This document shows positions 4,939 through 48,168 of a stretch of DNA of 64,000 bases, piece after piece (the first letter of the stretch is position 1; every line of letters begins with the position of its first letter). Source of the stretch: an uncultured Bacilli bacterium. GTDB taxonomy: Bacteria > Bacillota_I > Bacilli_A > RF39 > UBA660. Below the pieces are notes generated by a model, which did not search any database, had not been told where the DNA came from, and was given only the letters and a program-made list of their open reading frames with translations. The translations under genes were made by a program, and so were the position numbers. The stretch spans positions 9,475 through 73,474 of the forward strand of contig CAKPHC010000007.1 in the NCBI GenBank assembly GCA_934155645.1, in the 5' to 3' direction.

Positions 4939-5517
4939 TTATGCTCCTGCTTGTGCATTGAAGAATTGTTGATAGTTAGCAGTAACTACAATGTTTTTAG
5001 TTAATTCATCAGGTTGTTCACCAGTTGTATCATCATAAGTAGCAACTAGTGTAATAGTTTCTCTACCTGTTGAAGCCGCTAATTTTGCTCTGTTAGTTAA
5101 ATCATCATCTGGAGATGGTGTTAATGTAAATGTAATTGGAGCTTCTCCTGTTTCAACTGCTGTGATTGATTTTAATACAGCATCTAGAGTTCCAGTGTTT
5201 TTAACTCCAATTGTACATGTTACTTGGTCTCCAGGTGTTTCTAATGAAACAGCTAATGTTGCAGTTGTACCAGATATTGCAATACCACTTCCATCTGAAC
5301 ATTTAGAAACAGTAGTATCTTGATCAAATTCTACCTTCCAAGTTGAACCAATTGTAGTAGTACCGTTTATTGTTAAGTTAGTTGTAAATGCAGCAAATGC
5401 TACAGCCATAACAATAACAACTGTACATAACATAACAATTAATATGCCTTTGTCCTTCATAATATCCTCCTTTATTATTACAAAATTATTGTAACATATT
5501 TTAGTAGTGTAATACAA
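4939..5517 (-). CDS. Secreted TasA/camelysin-like protein, paralog 1 of 5
   Basis: 192 aa. Signal peptide ending AFA|AF, then conserved LTINGTTTIGSTWKV and the (L/F)xxPGDxxxCxxxxxNxG(S/T)LDAxL motif, comparable to the B. subtilis TasA LKPGDKLTKDFQFENNGSLAIK segment. AGGAGG RBS. Confidence 0.6.
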   Translation of the reverse strand: MYYTTKICYNNFVIIKEDIMKDKGILIVMLCTVVIVMAVAFAAFTTNLTINGTTTIGSTWKVEFDQDTTVSKCSDGSGIAISGTTATLAVSLETPGDQVTCTIGVKNTGTLDAVLKSITAVETGEAPITFTLTPSPDDDLTNRAKLAASTGRETITLVATYDDTTGEQPDELTKNIVVTANYQQFFNAQAGA

Positions 5518-5539
5518 TATTTTTTGTAAAAAAAAGATA

Positions 5540-5575
5540 TAGGAAACTATATCTTTAATCCAAATTATTAGTTAA
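5540..5575 (-). terminator. Rho-independent terminator of paralog 2
   Basis: On the minus strand: AAAGATATAG-TTTC-CTATATCTTT stem-loop followed by TTTTTT. Confidence 0.6.
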
Positions 5576-5579
5576 AATC

Positions 5580-6149
5580 TTAACCTAATTTTTGTTCATA
5601 ACCGATAGTTACAGTTACAGTTTTTGTTTTAGTAGCTTCTGTTGCTGAACCAGTAGCATCAGCATCATAAGCAGCGTCAATTTTGTAAGTTTGAGTTTTA
5701 CCAGCTGCTAATGTATCACCTGTAGCTATGCCTGATAAGTTGTATTTAATTAAGTCAGCAGCTGTTACATCAAGTGAATTATCATCAGCAGTAACAGTTT
5801 TAGAAGCTCCTGAACCATCTTTTACAACTGTATCAATGCTTTTAACTTTAGCATCTAATGAACCAGTGTTAGAAATAGTTACATCACAGTGTCCTGTGTC
5901 TCCTGGTTGATTGAAAGTGAAGTCGAATTGAGCAGTTGTTGCTGTAAAGCTTTTAGTAACTGCTGCTGCTTGTCCACCTTCTACTGCAGTTGCATTGCAA
6001 TCGATTGCAGTAATAGCAACGTTCCATGTAGAACTGATTGTTGCTGTACCATTAATTGTTAATGTTGTTTGGAATGCTGCATAAGCTACTGCCATAACGC
6101 AAACTACTGCACATAGCATTCCGATTATAAGATTTTTGCTATCTTTCAT
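5580..6149 (-). CDS. Secreted TasA/camelysin-like protein, paralog 2
   Basis: 189 aa. MKDSKNLIIGMLCAVVCVMAVAYA|AFQTTLTINGTATISSTWNV ... FTFNQPGDTGHCDVTISNTGSLDAKVK. Has its own rho-independent terminator. Confidence 0.6.
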   Translation of the reverse strand: MKDSKNLIIGMLCAVVCVMAVAYAAFQTTLTINGTATISSTWNVAITAIDCNATAVEGGQAAAVTKSFTATTAQFDFTFNQPGDTGHCDVTISNTGSLDAKVKSIDTVVKDGSGASKTVTADDNSLDVTAADLIKYNLSGIATGDTLAAGKTQTYKIDAAYDADATGSATEATKTKTVTVTIGYEQKLG

Positions 6150-6185
6150 TTCTAATTTCCTCCCTTGTGTTTATCACACTATAAT

Positions 6186-6731
6186 TTATTTAATTTTTTG
6201 AGTAGCAACTGATGTGATTGATAATTTTGCTGTTTTAGCTGCTGCTGCTGGATCTTCAGTTATAGTACTCTTATATGTTCCTTGAACAGTGATTTCATGA
6301 GTAGCATTTTTACCAGCGTTTGCTAATAACTCTGTAGTTCCATTATTAGTAGCTCCTGTAACAACAAAGTCAATTGCATCTGTTCCATCAGCTCCAGTAA
6401 TTGTATGAGTTAATAATACGTCTACAGTACCACAGTTTTCATATACTACTTGGCAAGTAGCTGTGTCTCCAGGTTGAGTGAATCCCATAGTGATTGTAGC
6501 ATCTAATGCATTACCAGCAACTGATGCTTCAGCAGTAACTGAACCAGCAGCTCCACCTGAAACTGGTGTTTTAGTTGGGCAAGTTGCCTCCTTAATTCTT
6601 ACACACCATTCTGATGCGATTGTTGATGTACCATTAATTGTTAATGTTGTTGCGAATGCAGCGTAAGCTACAGCCATAACACAAACAACTGCACATAACA
6701 TACCAATTACTAAATTCTTACTATCCTTCAT
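6186..6731 (-). CDS. Secreted TasA/camelysin-like protein, paralog 3
   Basis: 181 aa with the same N-terminal module. Contains FTQPGDTATCQVVYENCGTVDVLL. Confidence 0.6.
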   Translation of the reverse strand: MKDSKNLVIGMLCAVVCVMAVAYAAFATTLTINGTSTIASEWCVRIKEATCPTKTPVSGGAAGSVTAEASVAGNALDATITMGFTQPGDTATCQVVYENCGTVDVLLTHTITGADGTDAIDFVVTGATNNGTTELLANAGKNATHEITVQGTYKSTITEDPAAAAKTAKLSITSVATQKIK

Positions 6732-6825
6732 TTTGTTTTTCTCCTTCCTTATCTTATAGATTGATTATAGCAAACATTATTTTAAAAGACAATACTTAAA
6801 ATATAAATTTGCATTTTTTTACACA

Positions 6826-6862
6826 AAATTTTCACAAAAAAACACGACCACTGTAAAGTCAT
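6826..6862 (-). terminator. Rho-independent terminator of paralog 4
   Basis: On the minus strand: AAACATGAC ... GTCGTGTTT stem with one G-U pair, followed by a T-run. Confidence 0.45.
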
Positions 6863-6874
6863 GTTTTTAAACAT

Positions 6875-7405
6875 TTAATTAAAGTTTTGAGTATAATTAG
6901 CAGTTACTTTTAATTCCTTAGTTTTATCGCTATCAAGAGGTTGTGATGTAATACTACTATCATATTTACCAGTTACAACTGCTGTATGTGTACCAGTTGT
7001 TTTTGATAAAACAGCGTTTTCAGTAAGACCTGTTACAGAAAGTCTTATTGGTCCTTCTTCATCTATTCCAGTTATTATTAATTCACTTAATTTTGCATCT
7101 ATATTTCCACAGTTTTCAAATATAATTGTACATACTGCTTGGTCTCCTGGTTGGGTAAACTCCATAGAAACTGTCGCTGTATTATTTGACACTTTACTAG
7201 CAGTAGCAGTAACTGATTCAGCACTTCCTCCGCTTACTGGAGTTGTAACACAAGTAGGATTATCTTTAATTCTTACACACCAATCTGATGTGATTGTTGC
7301 TGTACCGTTTATCTTTAAATTTGTTGCAAATGCTGCATAACCTACAGCCATGATTGCTATTAATGCACACAACAATCCAACTAGTAAACCTTTTTTATCT
7401 TTCAT
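6875..7405 (-). CDS. Secreted TasA/camelysin-like protein, paralog 4
   Basis: 176 aa with the same N-terminal module. Contains FTQPGDQAVCTIIFENCGNIDAKL. Own terminator downstream. Confidence 0.6.
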   Translation of the reverse strand: MKDKKGLLVGLLCALIAIMAVGYAAFATNLKINGTATITSDWCVRIKDNPTCVTTPVSGGSAESVTATASKVSNNTATVSMEFTQPGDQAVCTIIFENCGNIDAKLSELIITGIDEEGPIRLSVTGLTENAVLSKTTGTHTAVVTGKYDSSITSQPLDSDKTKELKVTANYTQNFN

Positions 7406-20833: not shown

Positions 20834-22477
20834 TTAGTTAACTTTTATAACGTACGGATTATTAAGAGTTCCATCACCACTTGTAATTTCTGCAGTAGAT
20901 TTCAGATTGATGGTCGGGCGCACGCCATTCCTGATGTCCACGTAGTCGATGTCCACGCGACCCCCGGCCACGTTCCACACGATAGCGTCAGAGGCAGAGC
21001 GGTAGGGCGACATTGTCCAGGAAGGACTTCCATTTACTAGATAATAACTTTTATTCTCTATACCATATACTCCACCCGCATATGCTACTTCATCTGCTGT
21101 TATTAACCCTATTGGATATGTTAATGCTTTATTACCTTTTGTTGAAGTTGCTGTTGTATATAAATCATTACTTTGTGGACATTTAAATTGTGGTGTTTTA
21201 TTTAAATAAAGTCTATAATCAGCACCATAAATAGTAAGACCATCAACGCCATCACCACCACTTCTATCTCCACAAAATCCTATATCTACTAAATATGATG
21301 AATAAGTACTTAAATTTGCACTATACCATGTATCTATTGTTGTTTTTATTGCACTTGAATTGGTATTTTTATGAGTTTCAGCATATGTCGATGCACCTGT
21401 TGTTCCATACATATACCCTACATATGTAGCATCATTAGAGTTAGTATTAAACGCACTATTACCTATTGAATCTTGTTTGATTAATCTTATACTTCCATCT
21501 TCATTTATTCTTACTATTCGCCACAAAATTTCTTTTTTTCCCCATGTAGCGTATTCATTTGTATATGTTGTGCCTTCAAATTGAGAACACTTTTCACCAT
21601 TTACATCTCCTGAAATAATTGCACCTACACCATTTCTAGCAAGACAAACCTTTGATTCCTTACATTGACTCTCATTTGTCGTTGGATATTCACCTGCACC
21701 ATTAACATAGACAACCTCATTTCCATTATAAGTACATACATTTACTTTTCCAAATGATACATAGTTATTCTCCACTGCTCCTCTAAAGTAATATGTTGTT
21801 TTATTATCTTCGGTATTTGTACTTGTATAATATAGTCCTTTTCCATTTGTATCACTACTTATTTGTGAAAAATCTATATTTGTATCAGGCTGTGCTGTAT
21901 TATCTTTTAATATTGCTGCTGATAATCTTGTTGTTTTTATTATAGGGTTTTCTGGTGTCACGGTTTCGCTCATATCTTGTACATAATTAATATCAATGGT
22001 TAAAGTATTATCTGTTAAGGCTGGTTGAGTTGTTACATTAGAATCATAACTAATTGTTACGTTAAATGTAGAGGTTTGAGATTTTGCTAATTTGTCTCCT
22101 TTTTTTATTCCAGTTATTTCAAATTTAATAGCATCGCTTCCAGTTTCACTTGCTGTTATATCATTTATTATTGCATCTAATGTTCCTTGATTTGCTACTG
22201 TTATTTTGTAAACTATCTTATCCCCTGGACTTATTAAGTCAACATCAAAAGTAGCACTTGTACCTTCTGCTGTTGGAGCACTTGTTATTGTTACTCCACT
22301 TGTTTTAGATACTTCCTCAATTTTTGTAAATACTACTTTCCAAGTTGATGTAATATTTGCTGTACCATTAATAGTTAGATTCGTTGCAAAAGCTGCATAT
22401 CCTATTGCCATTACACATATTAAACAGCACATTGTTATCATAATTATTTTCTTACTCTTCATATACTTTTCTTCCAT
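20834..22477 (-). CDS. Secreted TasA-like N-domain protein with C-terminal DUF1566/Lcl-like domain; candidate DGR target (paralog 5)
   Basis: N-terminal MKSKKIIMITMCCLICVMAIGYA|AFATNLTINGTANITSTWKV plus LISPGDKIVYKITVANQGTLDAII, as in the four cluster paralogs. C-terminus has YPIGLITADEVAYAGG ... SWTMSPYRSASDAIVWNVAGGRVDIDYVDIRNGVRP, typical of DUF1566-type DGR variable domains. An alternative start at the second Met (22462) is possible. Confidence 0.7.
   Translation of the reverse strand: MEEKYMKSKKIIMITMCCLICVMAIGYAAFATNLTINGTANITSTWKVVFTKIEEVSKTSGVTITSAPTAEGTSATFDVDLISPGDKIVYKITVANQGTLDAIINDITASETGSDAIKFEITGIKKGDKLAKSQTSTFNVTISYDSNVTTQPALTDNTLTIDINYVQDMSETVTPENPIIKTTRLSAAILKDNTAQPDTNIDFSQISSDTNGKGLYYTSTNTEDNKTTYYFRGAVENNYVSFGKVNVCTYNGNEVVYVNGAGEYPTTNESQCKESKVCLARNGVGAIISGDVNGEKCSQFEGTTYTNEYATWGKKEILWRIVRINEDGSIRLIKQDSIGNSAFNTNSNDATYVGYMYGTTGASTYAETHKNTNSSAIKTTIDTWYSANLSTYSSYLVDIGFCGDRSGGDGVDGLTIYGADYRLYLNKTPQFKCPQSNDLYTTATSTKGNKALTYPIGLITADEVAYAGGVYGIENKSYYLVNGSPSWTMSPYRSASDAIVWNVAGGRVDIDYVDIRNGVRPTINLKSTAEITSGDGTLNNPYVIKVN
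20881..21010 (-). other. Candidate DGR variable repeat (VR) at the 3' end of the CDS
   Basis: About 58% GC in a ~27% GC genome. Aligns to the downstream TR with differences almost only at TR adenines. Confidence 0.6.
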
Positions 22478-30053: not shown

Positions 30054-31502
30054 TTAATATTGTTTTCCAAAGTAAATTTTAGTAACAGCTTTATCGCCAC
30101 AGCAAACGCAAGGTCCATCTGGCGCTTCATCATCAATTATACAACGTGATTTGATTCCTAATTCTTCTTTGATTTTATCTTCGCAGGCTTGGTTACCACA
30201 CCAATTAACTTTGATAAATCCATTTTTATTAGTTGCAATATCTTTCATTTCTTCATAATTATTTGCTGTATAAATCATACTGTTACGTCTTGATAATGCT
30301 TTATCATACATATCTTTTTGAATTGTCACTAGTAATTCTTGTACTTTAGGTAGTACTTCAGTAGTATTAACTTGGATTTTTTCTAAAGTATCACGTCTTA
30401 CAAGTGTTACTACATTAGTTTCTAAATCTCTTTTACCTATTTCTATTCTTATTGGGTATCCTTTTACCTCAGCTTCTGCAAATCTAAATCCTGGTGTTTT
30501 ATCAGTATTATCTACTTTAACAGTTATATCGTTTTCTTTTAATTGATTTGTAATATTGTTAGTTAATTCTTCTATTCTAGAATCATTTCCGATAGGTATA
30601 ACAATTACTTGAGTTGGTGCGATATTAGGAGGTAATACTAGTCCTCTATCATCACCATGAGTCATTATTATGGCTCCTATCATCCTAGTAGAGCATCCCC
30701 ATGATGTTTGATATGGTGTTTCTAGTTTATTTTCTTTGTTTAAGAATTGAATATTAAATGCTTTAGCAAAATGGTTTCCAAAGTAATGACTTGTACCATT
30801 TTGTAGTGCTACTCCATTATACATCATCGCTTCAAGTGAGTATGTTTCTTCAGCACCTGCAAATTTTTCTTTATCAGTTTTTCTACCTACTATTACTGGA
30901 AGTGCTAGATAGTTTCTTTGAAAATTTTCATATACTCCTAGCATTTTTAGTGTTTCTTCTTTAGCCTCTTTGCTAGTTGCATGCATTGTATGACCTTCTT
31001 GCCATAGTATTTCTCTACTTCTTAAGAAAGGTCTAGTTTCTTTTTCCCATCTAACAATAGTGCACCATTGGTTATAAAGTTTAGGTAAATCACGATAAGA
31101 TTTAATTATTTTACTATAATGTTCACAAAATAAAACTTCACTAGTCGGTCTAACACACATTTTTTCATCTAGTTTTGCACTTCCGCCTTGAGTAACCCAT
31201 GCTACTTCTGGAGCAAAACCTTCTACGTGCTCTTTTTCAATATTTAATAGACTTTCTGGTATAAACATAGGCATTTGTACATTTTCATGTCCTGTATCTT
31301 TAAACATTTTGTCTAATACTTTTTGGATGTTCTCCCATATAGCATATCCGTATGGACGAATAATCATACTTCCTTTAACTGATGAGTAATCTACTAAATC
31401 AGCTTTTTTGCATACATCTGTATACCATTTTCCAAAGTCTTCATCACGACCAGTTATTTCTTTTACTTGTTTGTCATTCATAATAAATCTTCCCTTCAAC
31501 AT
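30054..31502 (-). CDS. proS: Proline--tRNA ligase (archaeal/eukaryotic-like short type)
   Basis: Class II aaRS motifs and a C-terminal zinc-binding CxxC...CxxC. Probable start at MNDKQVKE. Confidence 0.85.
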   Translation of the reverse strand: MLKGRFIMNDKQVKEITGRDEDFGKWYTDVCKKADLVDYSSVKGSMIIRPYGYAIWENIQKVLDKMFKDTGHENVQMPMFIPESLLNIEKEHVEGFAPEVAWVTQGGSAKLDEKMCVRPTSEVLFCEHYSKIIKSYRDLPKLYNQWCTIVRWEKETRPFLRSREILWQEGHTMHATSKEAKEETLKMLGVYENFQRNYLALPVIVGRKTDKEKFAGAEETYSLEAMMYNGVALQNGTSHYFGNHFAKAFNIQFLNKENKLETPYQTSWGCSTRMIGAIIMTHGDDRGLVLPPNIAPTQVIVIPIGNDSRIEELTNNITNQLKENDITVKVDNTDKTPGFRFAEAEVKGYPIRIEIGKRDLETNVVTLVRRDTLEKIQVNTTEVLPKVQELLVTIQKDMYDKALSRRNSMIYTANNYEEMKDIATNKNGFIKVNWCGNQACEDKIKEELGIKSRCIIDDEAPDGPCVCCGDKAVTKIYFGKQY

Positions 31503-31518: not shown

Positions 31519-31546
31519 AAGGCATTTCTTGTTAAAAAAAAAGACT
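31519..31546 (-). terminator. Bidirectional-looking rho-independent terminator
   Basis: AAAAAAAAGACTTTTTAGTCTTTATT: an A-run, a 6-bp stem and a T-run. Confidence 0.55.
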
Positions 31547-31558
31547 TTTTAGTCTTTA

Positions 31559-31738
31559 TTAGTTAGCATTATTAGTTGCATTTCTTTTTTCTGCTTTTTT
31601 CTTATCACGACATGCTTTACATCTTTTTGGTTCATTAGTAAAACCTTTTTCAGCATAGAATTCTTGATCTCTTGCAGTAAAAGTAAATTCAGTACCACAA
31701 TCTACACATTTGATTGTTTTATCTTTATACTCAGCCAT
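31559..31738 (-). CDS. Small zinc-ribbon protein (59 aa; not in the ORF track because it is under 60 aa)
   Basis: Translation: MAEYKDKTIKCVDCGTEFTFTARDQEFYAEKGFTNEPKRCKACRDKKKAEKRNATNNAN. Perfect RBS AAGGAGGG 8 nt upstream and the terminator downstream. Confidence 0.7.
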   Translation of the reverse strand: MAEYKDKTIKCVDCGTEFTFTARDQEFYAEKGFTNEPKRCKACRDKKKAEKRNATNNAN

Positions 31739-31879: not shown

Positions 31880-32140
31880 TATGCAAGGAGTTTAACATTA
31901 ATTACAAAGAAGTATTTTTTGTAGAAGAAAAGAACTTTTATTGTAAAAGTCCTTTGCCTCATTTCTATAATTTTGCTACTATCTACTTTACTAGTATTGG
32001 TAATAGGAAAATAGACCCCTTTCATTTCTGATTAAGTGTCACCCTATATGAGACGACATTCAACGTAGCAAAGCTGAATGTTCCCTTTGTGTAAGCAAAG
32101 ACGATTGCTTACACATCAATAATAACATTGCCTATTTATA
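31880..32140 (+). repeat. Small-peptide cassette copy A (degenerate; peptide frame has no start codon)
   Basis: The frame ...KKRTFIVKVLCLISIILLLSTLLVLVIGK* is preceded by an in-frame TAG. It has the conserved terminator hairpin GACATTCAACG...CTGAATGTTCC plus a U-run, the second hairpin TGTAAGCAA/TTGCTTACA and the AATAACAT box. Confidence 0.55.
32055..32090 (+). terminator. Rho-independent terminator of cassette A
   Basis: Stem ACATTCA / TGAATGT followed by CCCTTTGTG. Confidence 0.5.
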
Positions 32141-32189
32141 TTGTCAAAATGAATTTAATAATTTTTATTAAAAAAATGTACTTGTTCGA

Positions 32190-32219
32190 TTGTTTTTATA
32201 AACACATCTATTATATAAT
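32190..32219 (+). promoter_or_regulatory. Promoter of cassette B
   Basis: TTGTTT, 18 nt, TATAAT. Conserved in position and sequence with cassette C. Confidence 0.5.
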
Positions 32220-32284
32220 TCTTTTTAGGAACATTTGGTTGTTGAGTGTCGTCCTCCAATCTTGATAAAGAAAGGAGGGATACA

Positions 32285-32377
32285 ATGAAGAAAAGAACTT
32301 TTATAATAAAAGTCCTTTGTCTTATTGCTATCATTTTATTACTCCTTACCTTATTGGTAATAGCAATAAAAATATAG
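32285..32377 (+). CDS. 30-aa hydrophobic peptide MKKRTFIIKVLCLIAIILLLLTLLVIAIKI (type I toxin-like)
   Basis: RBS AAAGGAGGG 5 nt upstream, a single TM helix after a KKR N-terminus, and a stem-loop immediately after the stop. Confidence 0.55.
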   Translation: MKKRTFIIKVLCLIAIILLLLTLLVIAIKI

Positions 32378-32417
32378 ACACTCTGTATTTGTAGAGTGTC
32401 TCCCCATCATAGAGGAT

Positions 32418-32456
32418 GACATTCAACGTGACAAAACTGAATGTTCCTCTTTTTTA
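32418..32456 (+). terminator. Rho-independent terminator of cassette B
   Basis: GACATTCAACG-loop-TGAATGTTC followed by TCTTTTTT. Confidence 0.6.
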
Positions 32457-32517
32457 TTATATGTAAGATTTCTTACTTACATACTAATAATAACATAAAT
32501 AATTATTCATGTCAAAA

Positions 32518-47687: not shown

Positions 47688-47740
47688 GATATCACCTTCA
47701 TTTTCTTTTATTTTGATTATTAAAATTTTAATATAAATCA

Positions 47741-47769
47741 TTGTTTTTAAAACAAATGTTTGATATAAT
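47741..47769 (+). promoter_or_regulatory. Promoter of cassette C (extended -10)
   Basis: TTGTTT, 17 nt, then TGaTATAAT. Confidence 0.55.
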
Positions 47770-47832
47770 CTTTTTTAGGAACGTTTGATAAGTTGGGTGG
47801 AGCCGAACTTCAAAAAGAAGGGAGGCGATATT

Positions 47833-47916
47833 ATGAATAAGAAGGACTTTTTAATTCTATCTCTAGTAATAATTATCTTCCTTTTATTATTATTACTATT
47901 TGTAGTATTAATATAA
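47833..47916 (+). CDS. 27-aa hydrophobic peptide MNKKDFLILSLVIIIFLLLLLLFVVLI (type I toxin-like)
   Basis: RBS GAAGGGAGG upstream. A perfect 10-bp hairpin (AATCACCTAA...TTAGGTGATT) follows the stop. Confidence 0.55.
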   Translation: MNKKDFLILSLVIIIFLLLLLLFVVLI

Positions 47917-48082
47917 AAGAAAAATCACCTAACTCAGCAATGATTTAGGTGATTACCCAATTAATAAGGTAACACTCAACACTGCAATATCGAATGTTCC
48001 TCTTTTTATTTTATGCAAACTTTCTTGCTAGATACATAATAACATAAAAACGACTTTTTTACAAGTCGTTTTAAAATCAATT

Positions 48083-48168
48083 TGGTGCCTGAAGTGGGAC
48101 TTGAACCCACACAGTATTGCTACCATCGGATTTTGAGTCCGACGCGTCTACCATTCCACCATTCAGGC
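48083..48168 (-). tRNA. tRNA-Leu (anticodon CAA), CCA encoded
   Basis: The reverse complement folds as a class II tRNA: GCCTGAATGGTGGAATGGTAGACGCGTCGGACTCAAAATCCGATGGTAGCAATACTGTGTGGGTTCAAGTCCCACTTCAGGCACCA, with anticodon loop CTCAAAA. Confidence 0.85.

Follow-up and report, generated by a model that had tools for sequence, protein, structure and literature searches.

Three short, related units in a 64,000-nucleotide (nt) stretch of DNA from an uncultured Bacilli bacterium (GenBank assembly GCA_934155645.1, contig CAKPHC010000007.1, positions 9,475 to 73,474; the whole stretch is called the window here) raise the question of what kind of gene is carried by a repeated unit that encodes a tiny hydrophobic peptide on one strand and, as predicted here, a structured RNA on the other. 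Two of these units, B and C, are intact, and the third, A, is a remnant. An earlier reading of the DNA letters alone (the sequence-only reading) had taken them for type I-like toxin-antitoxin modules with a convergent antisense RNA over the 3' region, and all sequence-level expectations of this proposal that we tested are borne out. The intact units probably represent a new family of candidate chromosomal type I toxin-antitoxin modules that would work like bsrG/SR4 of Bacillus subtilis. The plus strand would give rise to an mRNA of ~230 nt for a single-helix membrane peptide of 27 to 30 residues, the presumed toxin, and the minus strand, from a stronger promoter, to a structured RNA of ~115 nt, the presumed antitoxin, which would show full complementarity to the end of the mRNA, from the last few codons (three in unit B) through the 3' untranslated region (UTR).

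The alignment of A, B and C has a mean column identity of 71%, with pairwise values in the window of 76% for A versus B and ~60% for B versus C, and repeat finding recovers the same unit pairs (families D3, D14, D17 and D19). Two adjacent units and a third copy with the same ordered features, as described in the sequence-only reading, are thus present, and the sigma-A promoters, leaders, strong ribosome-binding sites, open reading frames (ORFs) for 27 to 30 amino acids (aa), three hairpins and the box that it listed were all found again in B and C. A scan of the whole window for intergenic, hydrophobic ORFs of 18 to 45 codons preceded by a Shine-Dalgarno sequence returns exactly these two units. 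Both of their leaders start with AGGAAC(A/G)TTTG. The layout of the units is as follows, all promoters, RNA ends and hairpins being predicted.

31924-32147: unit A, whole, a remnant.
32190-32515: unit B, whole, intact.
47741-48073: unit C, whole, intact.
32190-95 and 32214-19, plus strand: unit B sense promoter TTGTTT-18-TATAAT, read in the sequence, its position kept in the family consensus.
~32227, plus strand: unit B transcription start.
32227-32256, plus strand: unit B 5' leader, with AGGAACATTTGG at 32227-38 and GTTGAGTGTCGTCCTC at 32241-56.
32273-78, plus strand: unit B ribosome-binding site AGGAGG.
32285-32377, plus strand: unit B ORF of 30 aa, MKKRTFIIKVLCLIAIILLLLTLLVIAIKI, one hydrophobic helix, candidate toxin.
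32376-32401, minus strand: unit B hairpin c, 9 bp, overlapping the ORF stop codon (terminator scan).
32412-32455, plus strand: 3' partner of the unit B leader, with GAGGATGACATTCAAC at 32412-27 and CTGAATGTTCCT at 32437-48.
32419-32446, plus strand: unit B hairpin b, followed by a T-run to 32455; mRNA terminator, its complement being the antisense hairpin b.
32462-32481, minus strand: unit B hairpin a, the third hairpin, beside the AATAACAT box.
32366-32481, minus strand: unit B antisense RNA of ~115 nt, candidate antitoxin.
32515-32510 and 32492-32487, minus strand: unit B antisense promoter TTGACA-17-TATTAT with TG before the -10, score 11/12 (promoter scan).
47741-46 and 47764-69, plus strand: unit C sense promoter TTGTTT-17-TATAAT; TGATATAAT ends at 47769.
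~47777 to 48008, plus strand: unit C mRNA with the leader AGGAACGTTTGATAAGTTGGGTGGAGCC.
Plus strand, in unit C: ribosome-binding site GGGAGG.
47833-47916, plus strand: unit C ORF of 27 aa, MNKKDFLILSLVIIIFLLLLLLFVVLI.
47924-47953: unit C hairpin c.
47968-48008: unit C hairpin b and terminator.
47908-48073, minus strand: unit C antisense gene, with an RNA from ~48030 to 47908.
48064-48059 (-35) and 48041-48036 (-10), minus strand: unit C antisense promoter TTGTAA-17-TATTAT.

The units of the window belong to a large family. A search pattern made from the second hairpin, ACAYTCAAC-N11-GAATGTTCCYYTT (20.5 bases, or about one chance match per 596 Gb), was found at at least 119 loci in a collection of species-representative genomes, and all genome matches listed share the same ordered flanks, i.e., the flanking hairpins, the T-run and the box. 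Set against about one match by chance, their number and their shared flanks are far beyond coincidence. A second scan, of metagenome contigs, took the leader and ribosome-binding site, i.e., the toxin side, as its starting point and returned at least 120 loci. Nearly all loci listed in the two scans belong to uncultured gut Bacilli. With nhmmer, 151 units were delimited in the genome matches listed and the window, 108 of them of full length; unit counts given below with denominators of 94, 98, 131, 134, 135 or 145 are numbers of units among the matches listed and not totals. The carriers among the genome matches listed are nearly all metagenome-assembled genomes (MAGs) labelled uncultured Bacilli, Tenericutes or Erysipelotrichaceae, joined by Coprobacillus sp. 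CAG:605, Firmicutes bacterium CAG:582 and Candidatus Ventrenecus, and they come from the guts of rabbits, humans (Hadza), chickens, mice and ruminants. Four looser matches of the hairpin pattern in viral contigs lack the shared flanks and were set aside as chance matches.

A separate antisense gene is indicated by three kinds of sequence signals, namely a conserved promoter, a terminator of its own and covarying hairpins. The only terminator-like site on the minus strand of the unit B region is the hairpin 32401-32376, which is followed by ATATTTTTAT. With promoter and terminator located on this strand, the conserved AATAACAT box of the sequence-only reading, which is indeed present, turns out to be the extended -10 element of the antisense promoter seen from the other strand, and the hairpin at the ORF stop is the predicted terminator of the convergent RNA. 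The antisense -10 element that had been proposed at 32456-32463 (CATATAAT) is not the conserved promoter and was misplaced by ~30 nt, since its position, which reads CATAAAAT in most units, is without a usable -35, while the promoter upstream of it is conserved. This promoter scores at least 9/12 in 111 of 134 units, carries a TG at -15/-14 in 113 and has a -10 that ends 32 to 34 nt before the A-run in 105. The sense promoter is the weaker one, with scores mostly between 8/12 and 10/12 in 98 units and a TG in 31 of them.

The predicted antisense RNA of unit B consists of hairpin a, an A-run, hairpin b, a spacer and the terminator hairpin c, and it folds into three hairpins with a z score of -4.5. 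It overlaps the mRNA from the last three sense codons and the stop codon to the 3' end, i.e., over ~90 nt, and the two RNAs would therefore be perfectly complementary in this part. In a set of 28 diverse antisense sequences, RNAalifold recovers hairpins b and c, with double changes in 15 of 19 pairs; covariation in hairpin c comprises 11 pairs, and that of hairpin a can be followed by eye (CAAG/CTTG, GAAG/CTTC, GAGAG/CTCTC, TAAG/CTTA). All three hairpins are more stable on the antisense strand in most of 131 units (a in 103, b in 125 and c in 100), the signature of G.U pairs that turn into C.A mismatches on the opposite strand, and this comparison of sequences indicates that the hairpins are selected on the antisense strand.

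Selection on this strand, together with the antisense gene being the best-conserved part of the unit and standing alone, with no toxin half, in 27 of 135 cases (21 of these 27 with a promoter score of at least 9/12), might suggest that the minus-strand small RNA is the functional product and acts in trans, the ORF and its mRNA being secondary. We consider this very improbable. The ORF shows coding selection and has a strong ribosome-binding site, no trans target was identified, and the co-evolution of leader and 3' region in the plus-strand RNA, with its large excess of G.U over A.C described below, would be left unexplained if the minus-strand RNA alone mattered.

The second line of evidence for a bsrG/SR4-like module is a new feature of the mRNA, the predicted pairing of its first ~30 nt with both arms of its own terminator. 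In the consensus as well as in divergent copies, which were found by nhmmer without the search pattern, these first ~30 nt are a loop-shortened copy of the antisense hairpin b region in the same sense, which makes them complementary to the two terminator arms of the mRNA. In unit B, AGGAACATTTGG would pair with CTGAATGTTCCT and GTTGAGTGTCGTCCTC, a segment that includes the anti-Shine-Dalgarno sequence CCTCC, with GAGGATGACATTCAAC, giving 28 bp including G.U pairs. The minimum-free-energy folds of the full-length mRNAs of units B and C close between the 5' and the 3' end with z scores of -7.5 and -6.4, respectively, and none of 200 shuffles was as stable. Since the partner of the leader is the terminator hairpin with both of its arms, closure and terminator exclude each other.

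The closure is kept by compensatory changes across subfamilies (GGATACATTTGA with TCAAATGTATCC, GGGAAATATTTAAC with GTTAAGTATTCCC, CTTGCC with GGCAAG, and GGAGCC with GGCTAC). For a covariation test, 51 leader-plus-3' constructs were aligned with plain MAFFT; 84% of the cells were paired, compared with 35 to 50% for slid partners, with double changes in 18 of 28 pairs and a covariation score of 0.297 versus 0.08 to 0.11; values as high as those observed were not reached in any of 500 shuffles. The mean energy of the leader-to-3' duplex is -32.1 kcal/mol for cognate partners and -12.4 +/- 3.0 kcal/mol for shuffled leaders, and in a duplex matrix of four subfamilies the diagonal values are -33, -26, -26 and -32, with off-diagonal values as weak as -9. 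Cells without Watson-Crick pairing are G.U in 156 and A.C in 39 cases, which argues for selection of the pairing in the plus-strand RNA and against an inverted repeat at the DNA level. When 92 distinct mRNAs were folded by partition function, their first 25 nt had a pairing probability of 0.94, and the probability of an unpaired ribosome-binding site is 0.17.

A mechanism that would combine both genes can be outlined along these lines. The mRNA would be nearly untranslatable on its own, with its first ~30 nt closing the molecule and its ribosome-binding site predicted to be paired, and the antisense RNA would be directed at precisely the 3' stretch to which the leader is bound. If bsrG/SR4 is a guide, pairing with the antisense RNA could yield a long duplex for cleavage by RNase III; the same pairing would free the leader, and its anti-Shine-Dalgarno sequence might then tighten the block of the ribosome-binding site. 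In the bsrG mRNA, nt 1 to 35 pair with nt 232 to 262 (helix P1), and SR4 is complementary to the 3' arm of this helix; experiments showed that SR4 binding releases nt 1 to 33 from pairing and lengthens the helix over the ribosome-binding site from 4 to 8 bp (PMC3834814). SR4 therefore both inhibits the translation of bsrG and promotes its decay by RNase III (PMC3834814; PMC6562991).

The bsrG/SR4 system is the closest mechanistic match of the new family, which is a likeness of mechanism and not evidence of homology. As in bsrG/SR4 and the structurally similar bsrE/SR5, both from B. subtilis prophages, the two genes form a convergent pair in which the antisense RNA overlaps the 3' UTR and the end of the ORF, the peptide is small and hydrophobic (38 aa in BsrG, 30 aa in BsrE), and, as in bsrG, the 5' end of the mRNA is predicted to pair with the 3' segment that is the antisense target, the ribosome-binding site lying in a helix. 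The differences concern sequence, size and genomic context. The BsrG model of Rfam (RF01412) gives 10.3 bits (E = 4), below its threshold of 55 bits, and the peptides of the new family have a basic N terminus and, as far as the family libraries tell, another sequence. Their predicted RNAs measure ~230 and 115 nt, compared with 294 and 180 nt in bsrG/SR4. The bsrG terminator SL4 is separate from helix P1, whereas the leader of the new family has the terminator hairpin itself as its partner. Finally, bsrG/SR4 resides in prophages, whereas the new units are chromosomal, with no visible prophage, and often lie beside tRNA genes.

The sequence-only reading had likened the units to Fst, TxpA and BsrG in one breath. 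The likeness to TxpA and BsrG holds for the layout: an antisense gene on the 3' side that overlaps the end of the ORF is the Gram-positive arrangement of TxpA/RatA, BsrG/SR4, BsrE/SR5 and SprG/SprF (T1TAdb paper). A hydrophobic membrane peptide is also shared with txpA/RatA and SprG/SprF, but the toxins of these systems are longer (TxpA, 59 aa), and no homology to them was detected. The comparison with Fst does not stand. Fst/RNAII (par of pAD1) and the EF0408-EF0409 locus of Enterococcus faecalis do have convergent transcripts with a shared terminator region, a small membrane peptide and a sequestered ribosome-binding site. The Fst antitoxin, however, carries direct repeats with complementarity to the 5' end of the mRNA, by which it blocks translation, and its overlap excludes the ORF, whereas the overlap of the new family includes the last codons. 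The leader of the new family has the same sense as the antisense RNA and cannot pair with it, which excludes the Fst/RNAII type. The EF0408_EF0409 model of Rfam scores far below its threshold (10.5 versus 440 bits), and there is no significant Pfam match.

A closed toxin mRNA is also a theme of Gram-negative systems. In hok, the 'fbi' element, a long-distance pairing between the 5' and the 3' end, keeps the full-length toxin mRNA closed and untranslatable, and the full-length aapA1 mRNA was reportedly found by Arnion et al. in 2017 to be kept closed and untranslatable by 5'-3' pairing as well. The new family resembles hok/sok and aapA1/IsoA1 in this respect, but there the 5' region is what the antisense RNA binds, and trimming of the 3' end is required for activation, whereas the antisense RNA of the new family covers the 3' partner; a sequence relation to either system is absent. 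Searches of the databases returned nothing else that could name the family. At the gathering threshold, Rfam finds only tRNA in the whole window, and in E-value mode on units B and C and a typical type 1 unit it finds only noise (MCS4 with 28 bits versus 56, ohsC with 21.5 versus 50). Scans of the peptides with Pfam, NCBIfam, PHROGs and PADLOC gave nothing meaningful, none of the eight commonest peptides is present by exact look-up in a collection of 15 billion proteins, and a 43-aa, GTG-extended ORF used as a homology query brought up five unnamed short ORFs and nothing informative. In the literature on these taxa, no specific description of such a system was found.

The peptide ORF provides the third line of evidence. 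Behind a strong ribosome-binding site, nearly every full unit encodes one of two peptide types, type 1 (MKTKTFIIKVLKLIAIILFLLIIMIVVIKK, as in unit B) or type 2 (MNKKDFLILSLVIIIFLLLLLLFIVLI, as in unit C), and there are rarer subfamilies such as MTKREFSQFIIILLLFLVVIILLLK and MKKKDLLISFLILIIILLIVSLMILSIKK. With 27 to 30 aa and one hydrophobic helix, these peptides have the size (<60 aa) and character of small membrane-type toxins. The pooled ratio of nonsynonymous to synonymous polymorphism (pN/pS) is 0.49 for type 1 (49 distinct ORFs) and 0.29 for type 2 (24 ORFs), conservation is highest at codon position 2, and frame +1 is closed in every case. By these sequence measures, the peptide ORF is under purifying selection. 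The C-terminal Lys-Lys and stop codon of type 1 (AAA AAA TGA) are the complement of the U-tract of the antisense terminator, e.g., in locus L083 (1991-2360), and the two genes thus constrain each other at these bases.

The fourth line is the one-sided decay of the family, of which unit A is an example. The sequence-only reading had described this copy as having lost its start codon, and a TAG (31924-26) does take the place of the ATG of unit B. The loss is larger, though, and comprises the whole 5' half: unit A lacks promoter, leader, ribosome-binding site and start codon, shows no homology upstream of the TAG and is matched by nhmmer at profile positions 124-368 only (profile length ~390). 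The remaining reading frame is still open, hairpin c is degenerate and the antisense terminator is eroding. The following parts are retained.

32053-32087: unit A hairpin b.
32091-32116: unit A hairpin a.
32147-32119, minus strand: unit A antisense promoter, score 11/12, at a site identical to that of unit B.

Unit A is thus one of the antisense-only copies counted above. Among the 108 full-length units, at least 95 have an intact ORF; the toxin was frameshifted in L009, L014, L015 and L024, and its start codon was lost in L017 (ATG to ATA) and L031 (ATG to CTG) as well as in unit A. The unit C region has a syntenic, orthologous counterpart in locus L017 of a Hadza MAG (L017 5476-5830 versus window 47700-48085, 92% identity), in which the sense -10 is mutated too (TATAAT to TGCAAT), whereas the antisense gene carries a single substitution. 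Seen from the toxin side, 93 of 94 evaluable units keep hairpin b and the antisense region, the exception being L175. Unit A and many copies elsewhere are probably modules in which the toxin half was destroyed and the antisense gene persisted, and the population pattern fits a toxin that is kept in check. The units also form tandem arrays, with 19 clusters of two or three head-to-tail units that often mix subfamilies; such duplications are typical of type I loci. In L090 (~520-960), an antisense-only copy directly follows a 93-aa ORF that resembles a type II toxin of the RelE/YafQ kind, and two intact tandem units are located 5 kb from this copy.

How far the word toxin is justified depends on the weight of the points against it, and there are several. 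All promoters, RNA ends and structures are predictions. Because no match to a known toxin family exists, the designation derives wholly from the architecture and the population pattern, and small non-toxic membrane peptides with antisense regulators exist too. A pN/pS of 0.3 to 0.5 denotes moderate constraint only. The asymmetry between antisense-only and toxin-only units (Fisher p = 5e-6) was computed from two samples that had been ascertained in different ways, and a gene that stays intact requires its own 3' end with or without an antitoxin. The apparent invariance of the hairpin b stem is partly imposed, since the search pattern was made from this hairpin. Masking the antisense-covered region in the 92 folded mRNAs lowers the probability of an unpaired ribosome-binding site to 0.12, with the site closing further in 39 mRNAs and opening in 13, so that the predicted effect of the antisense RNA on the site is small.

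The alternative that these points call to mind is a harmless small membrane protein, such as a regulatory or accessory subunit, whose expression is merely tuned by the antisense RNA and the mRNA fold. Purifying selection on a peptide that matches no toxin family would fit it, but it does not account well for multi-copy units, for tandem arrays that mix subfamilies, for frequent independent knock-outs of the ORF in which the antisense gene is retained while toxin-only units are almost absent, for several layers of translational silencing of the mRNA, or for an antisense promoter stronger than the sense promoter. Such a combination is typical of type I modules and unexpected for a housekeeping membrane subunit, and we hold the harmless-protein explanation to be unlikely.

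The candidate type I toxin-antitoxin units have a conspicuous position relative to tRNA genes, as seen for unit C in the window.

48083-48168, minus strand: tRNA-Leu(caa) gene, directly upstream of the unit C antisense gene and in the same direction.
48047-48073: hairpin and T-run in unit C, with the antisense -35 in the loop, placed to terminate tRNA-Leu(caa).

Beyond the antisense promoter and no more than 120 nt from it, 42 of 145 units (29%) have a tRNA or transfer-messenger RNA (tmRNA) gene, which is always co-directional with the antisense gene (e.g., window 48047-48168, L001, L006, L010, L017, L026, L034 and others), and the adjoining genes encode tRNAs for Leu, Met, Thr, Arg, Ala, Cys, Phe, Lys and His as well as tmRNA. 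On the 5' side of the units, such genes were found in only 2 of 112 cases. By a direct inverted-repeat test, the antisense -35 lies within the loop of a perfect hairpin of 7 to 9 bp followed by Ts in 25 of 35 tRNA-adjacent units, compared with 17 of 99 others (p = 1e-8); evidently, the upstream gene is terminated by this hairpin. The same syntenic site holds different subfamilies in different species.

A location directly downstream of at least nine tRNA species and tmRNA, the multi-copy occurrence and an inverted repeat of ~28 bp are also what a non-autonomous mobile element would offer, i.e., a miniature inverted-repeat transposable element (MITE) in which leader and 3' region are terminal repeats and the tRNA association is an insertion preference. 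Several points speak against such an element. The inverted repeat is internal, with conserved promoters outside it on both sides; its mismatches are strand-biased in the manner of RNA pairing (the 156 G.U versus 39 A.C cells given above); copies in the same genome are old and diverged (60 to 76% identity) and not near-identical as after a transposition burst; and the ORF is under selection. A blastn search with unit B in phage and plasmid collections yielded no match, and true insertion sequence (IS) elements are found inserted into units as foreign DNA. A mobile element is scarcely credible, and the units were not found to be parts of an IS or MITE, which would have spoken against the sequence-only reading.

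For type I modules, the tRNA neighborhood could have a regulatory meaning, although the following extension is rather improbable as a whole. The supply of antitoxin could depend on read-through from, or promoter occlusion by, the growth-rate-controlled transcription of the tRNA gene, and, if so, the peptide would be released when tRNA synthesis collapses, e.g., under starvation or stringent control. Conserved stems combined with hypervariable antisense loops may furthermore make tandem paralogues mutually orthogonal, and antisense-only copies could serve as trans-acting 'anti-toxin vaccines'.

Foreign DNA was observed in or near hairpin c in several loci (L002 4528-4677, L007 5342-5469, L052 197-421 and 2201-2338, and also L004, L040 and L095). 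Three of the inserted loci share a junction that ends in ...AAATTGTACCC, and the insert of L052 is ~1.8 kb long with an IS3-like ORF of 226 aa; three others share a second type of junction, ...AAATGGGG(C/T). In L026 (1223-1409 and 3307-3497), a unit is split by a transposase-like ORF of 604 aa. Hairpin c may be a preferred insertion target.

If the interpretation is correct, the family adds a well-defined and very widespread candidate type I system to uncultured gut Bacilli with small genomes, for which none has been annotated. Its more than 200 natural variants would offer unusually clear comparative evidence for 5'-3' closure and for an antitoxin that competes for the same segment, a closure principle that to our knowledge has so far been based mainly on a few probed cases, i.e., bsrG/SR4, hok and aapA1. 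The family also supplies ready covarying RNA pairs for the design of orthogonal RNA regulators. As the units adjoin tRNA genes, where genomic islands are sought, they should be masked or annotated in MAG pipelines.

Two further observations in the window concern other sequences. Between the prolyl-tRNA synthetase gene (30054-31502) and unit A, the minus strand carries an ORF of 59 aa with two CxxC pairs that resemble a zinc ribbon (31559-31738), and its stop codon is followed by a putative hairpin (~31535-31553, judged by eye). At 5321-7405 and 22323-22465, a direct repeat of 143 nt occurs in five copies with a spacing of 580 to 690 nt; the copies have 60 to 77% identity to the reference copy and probably encode repeated domains of a large protein.

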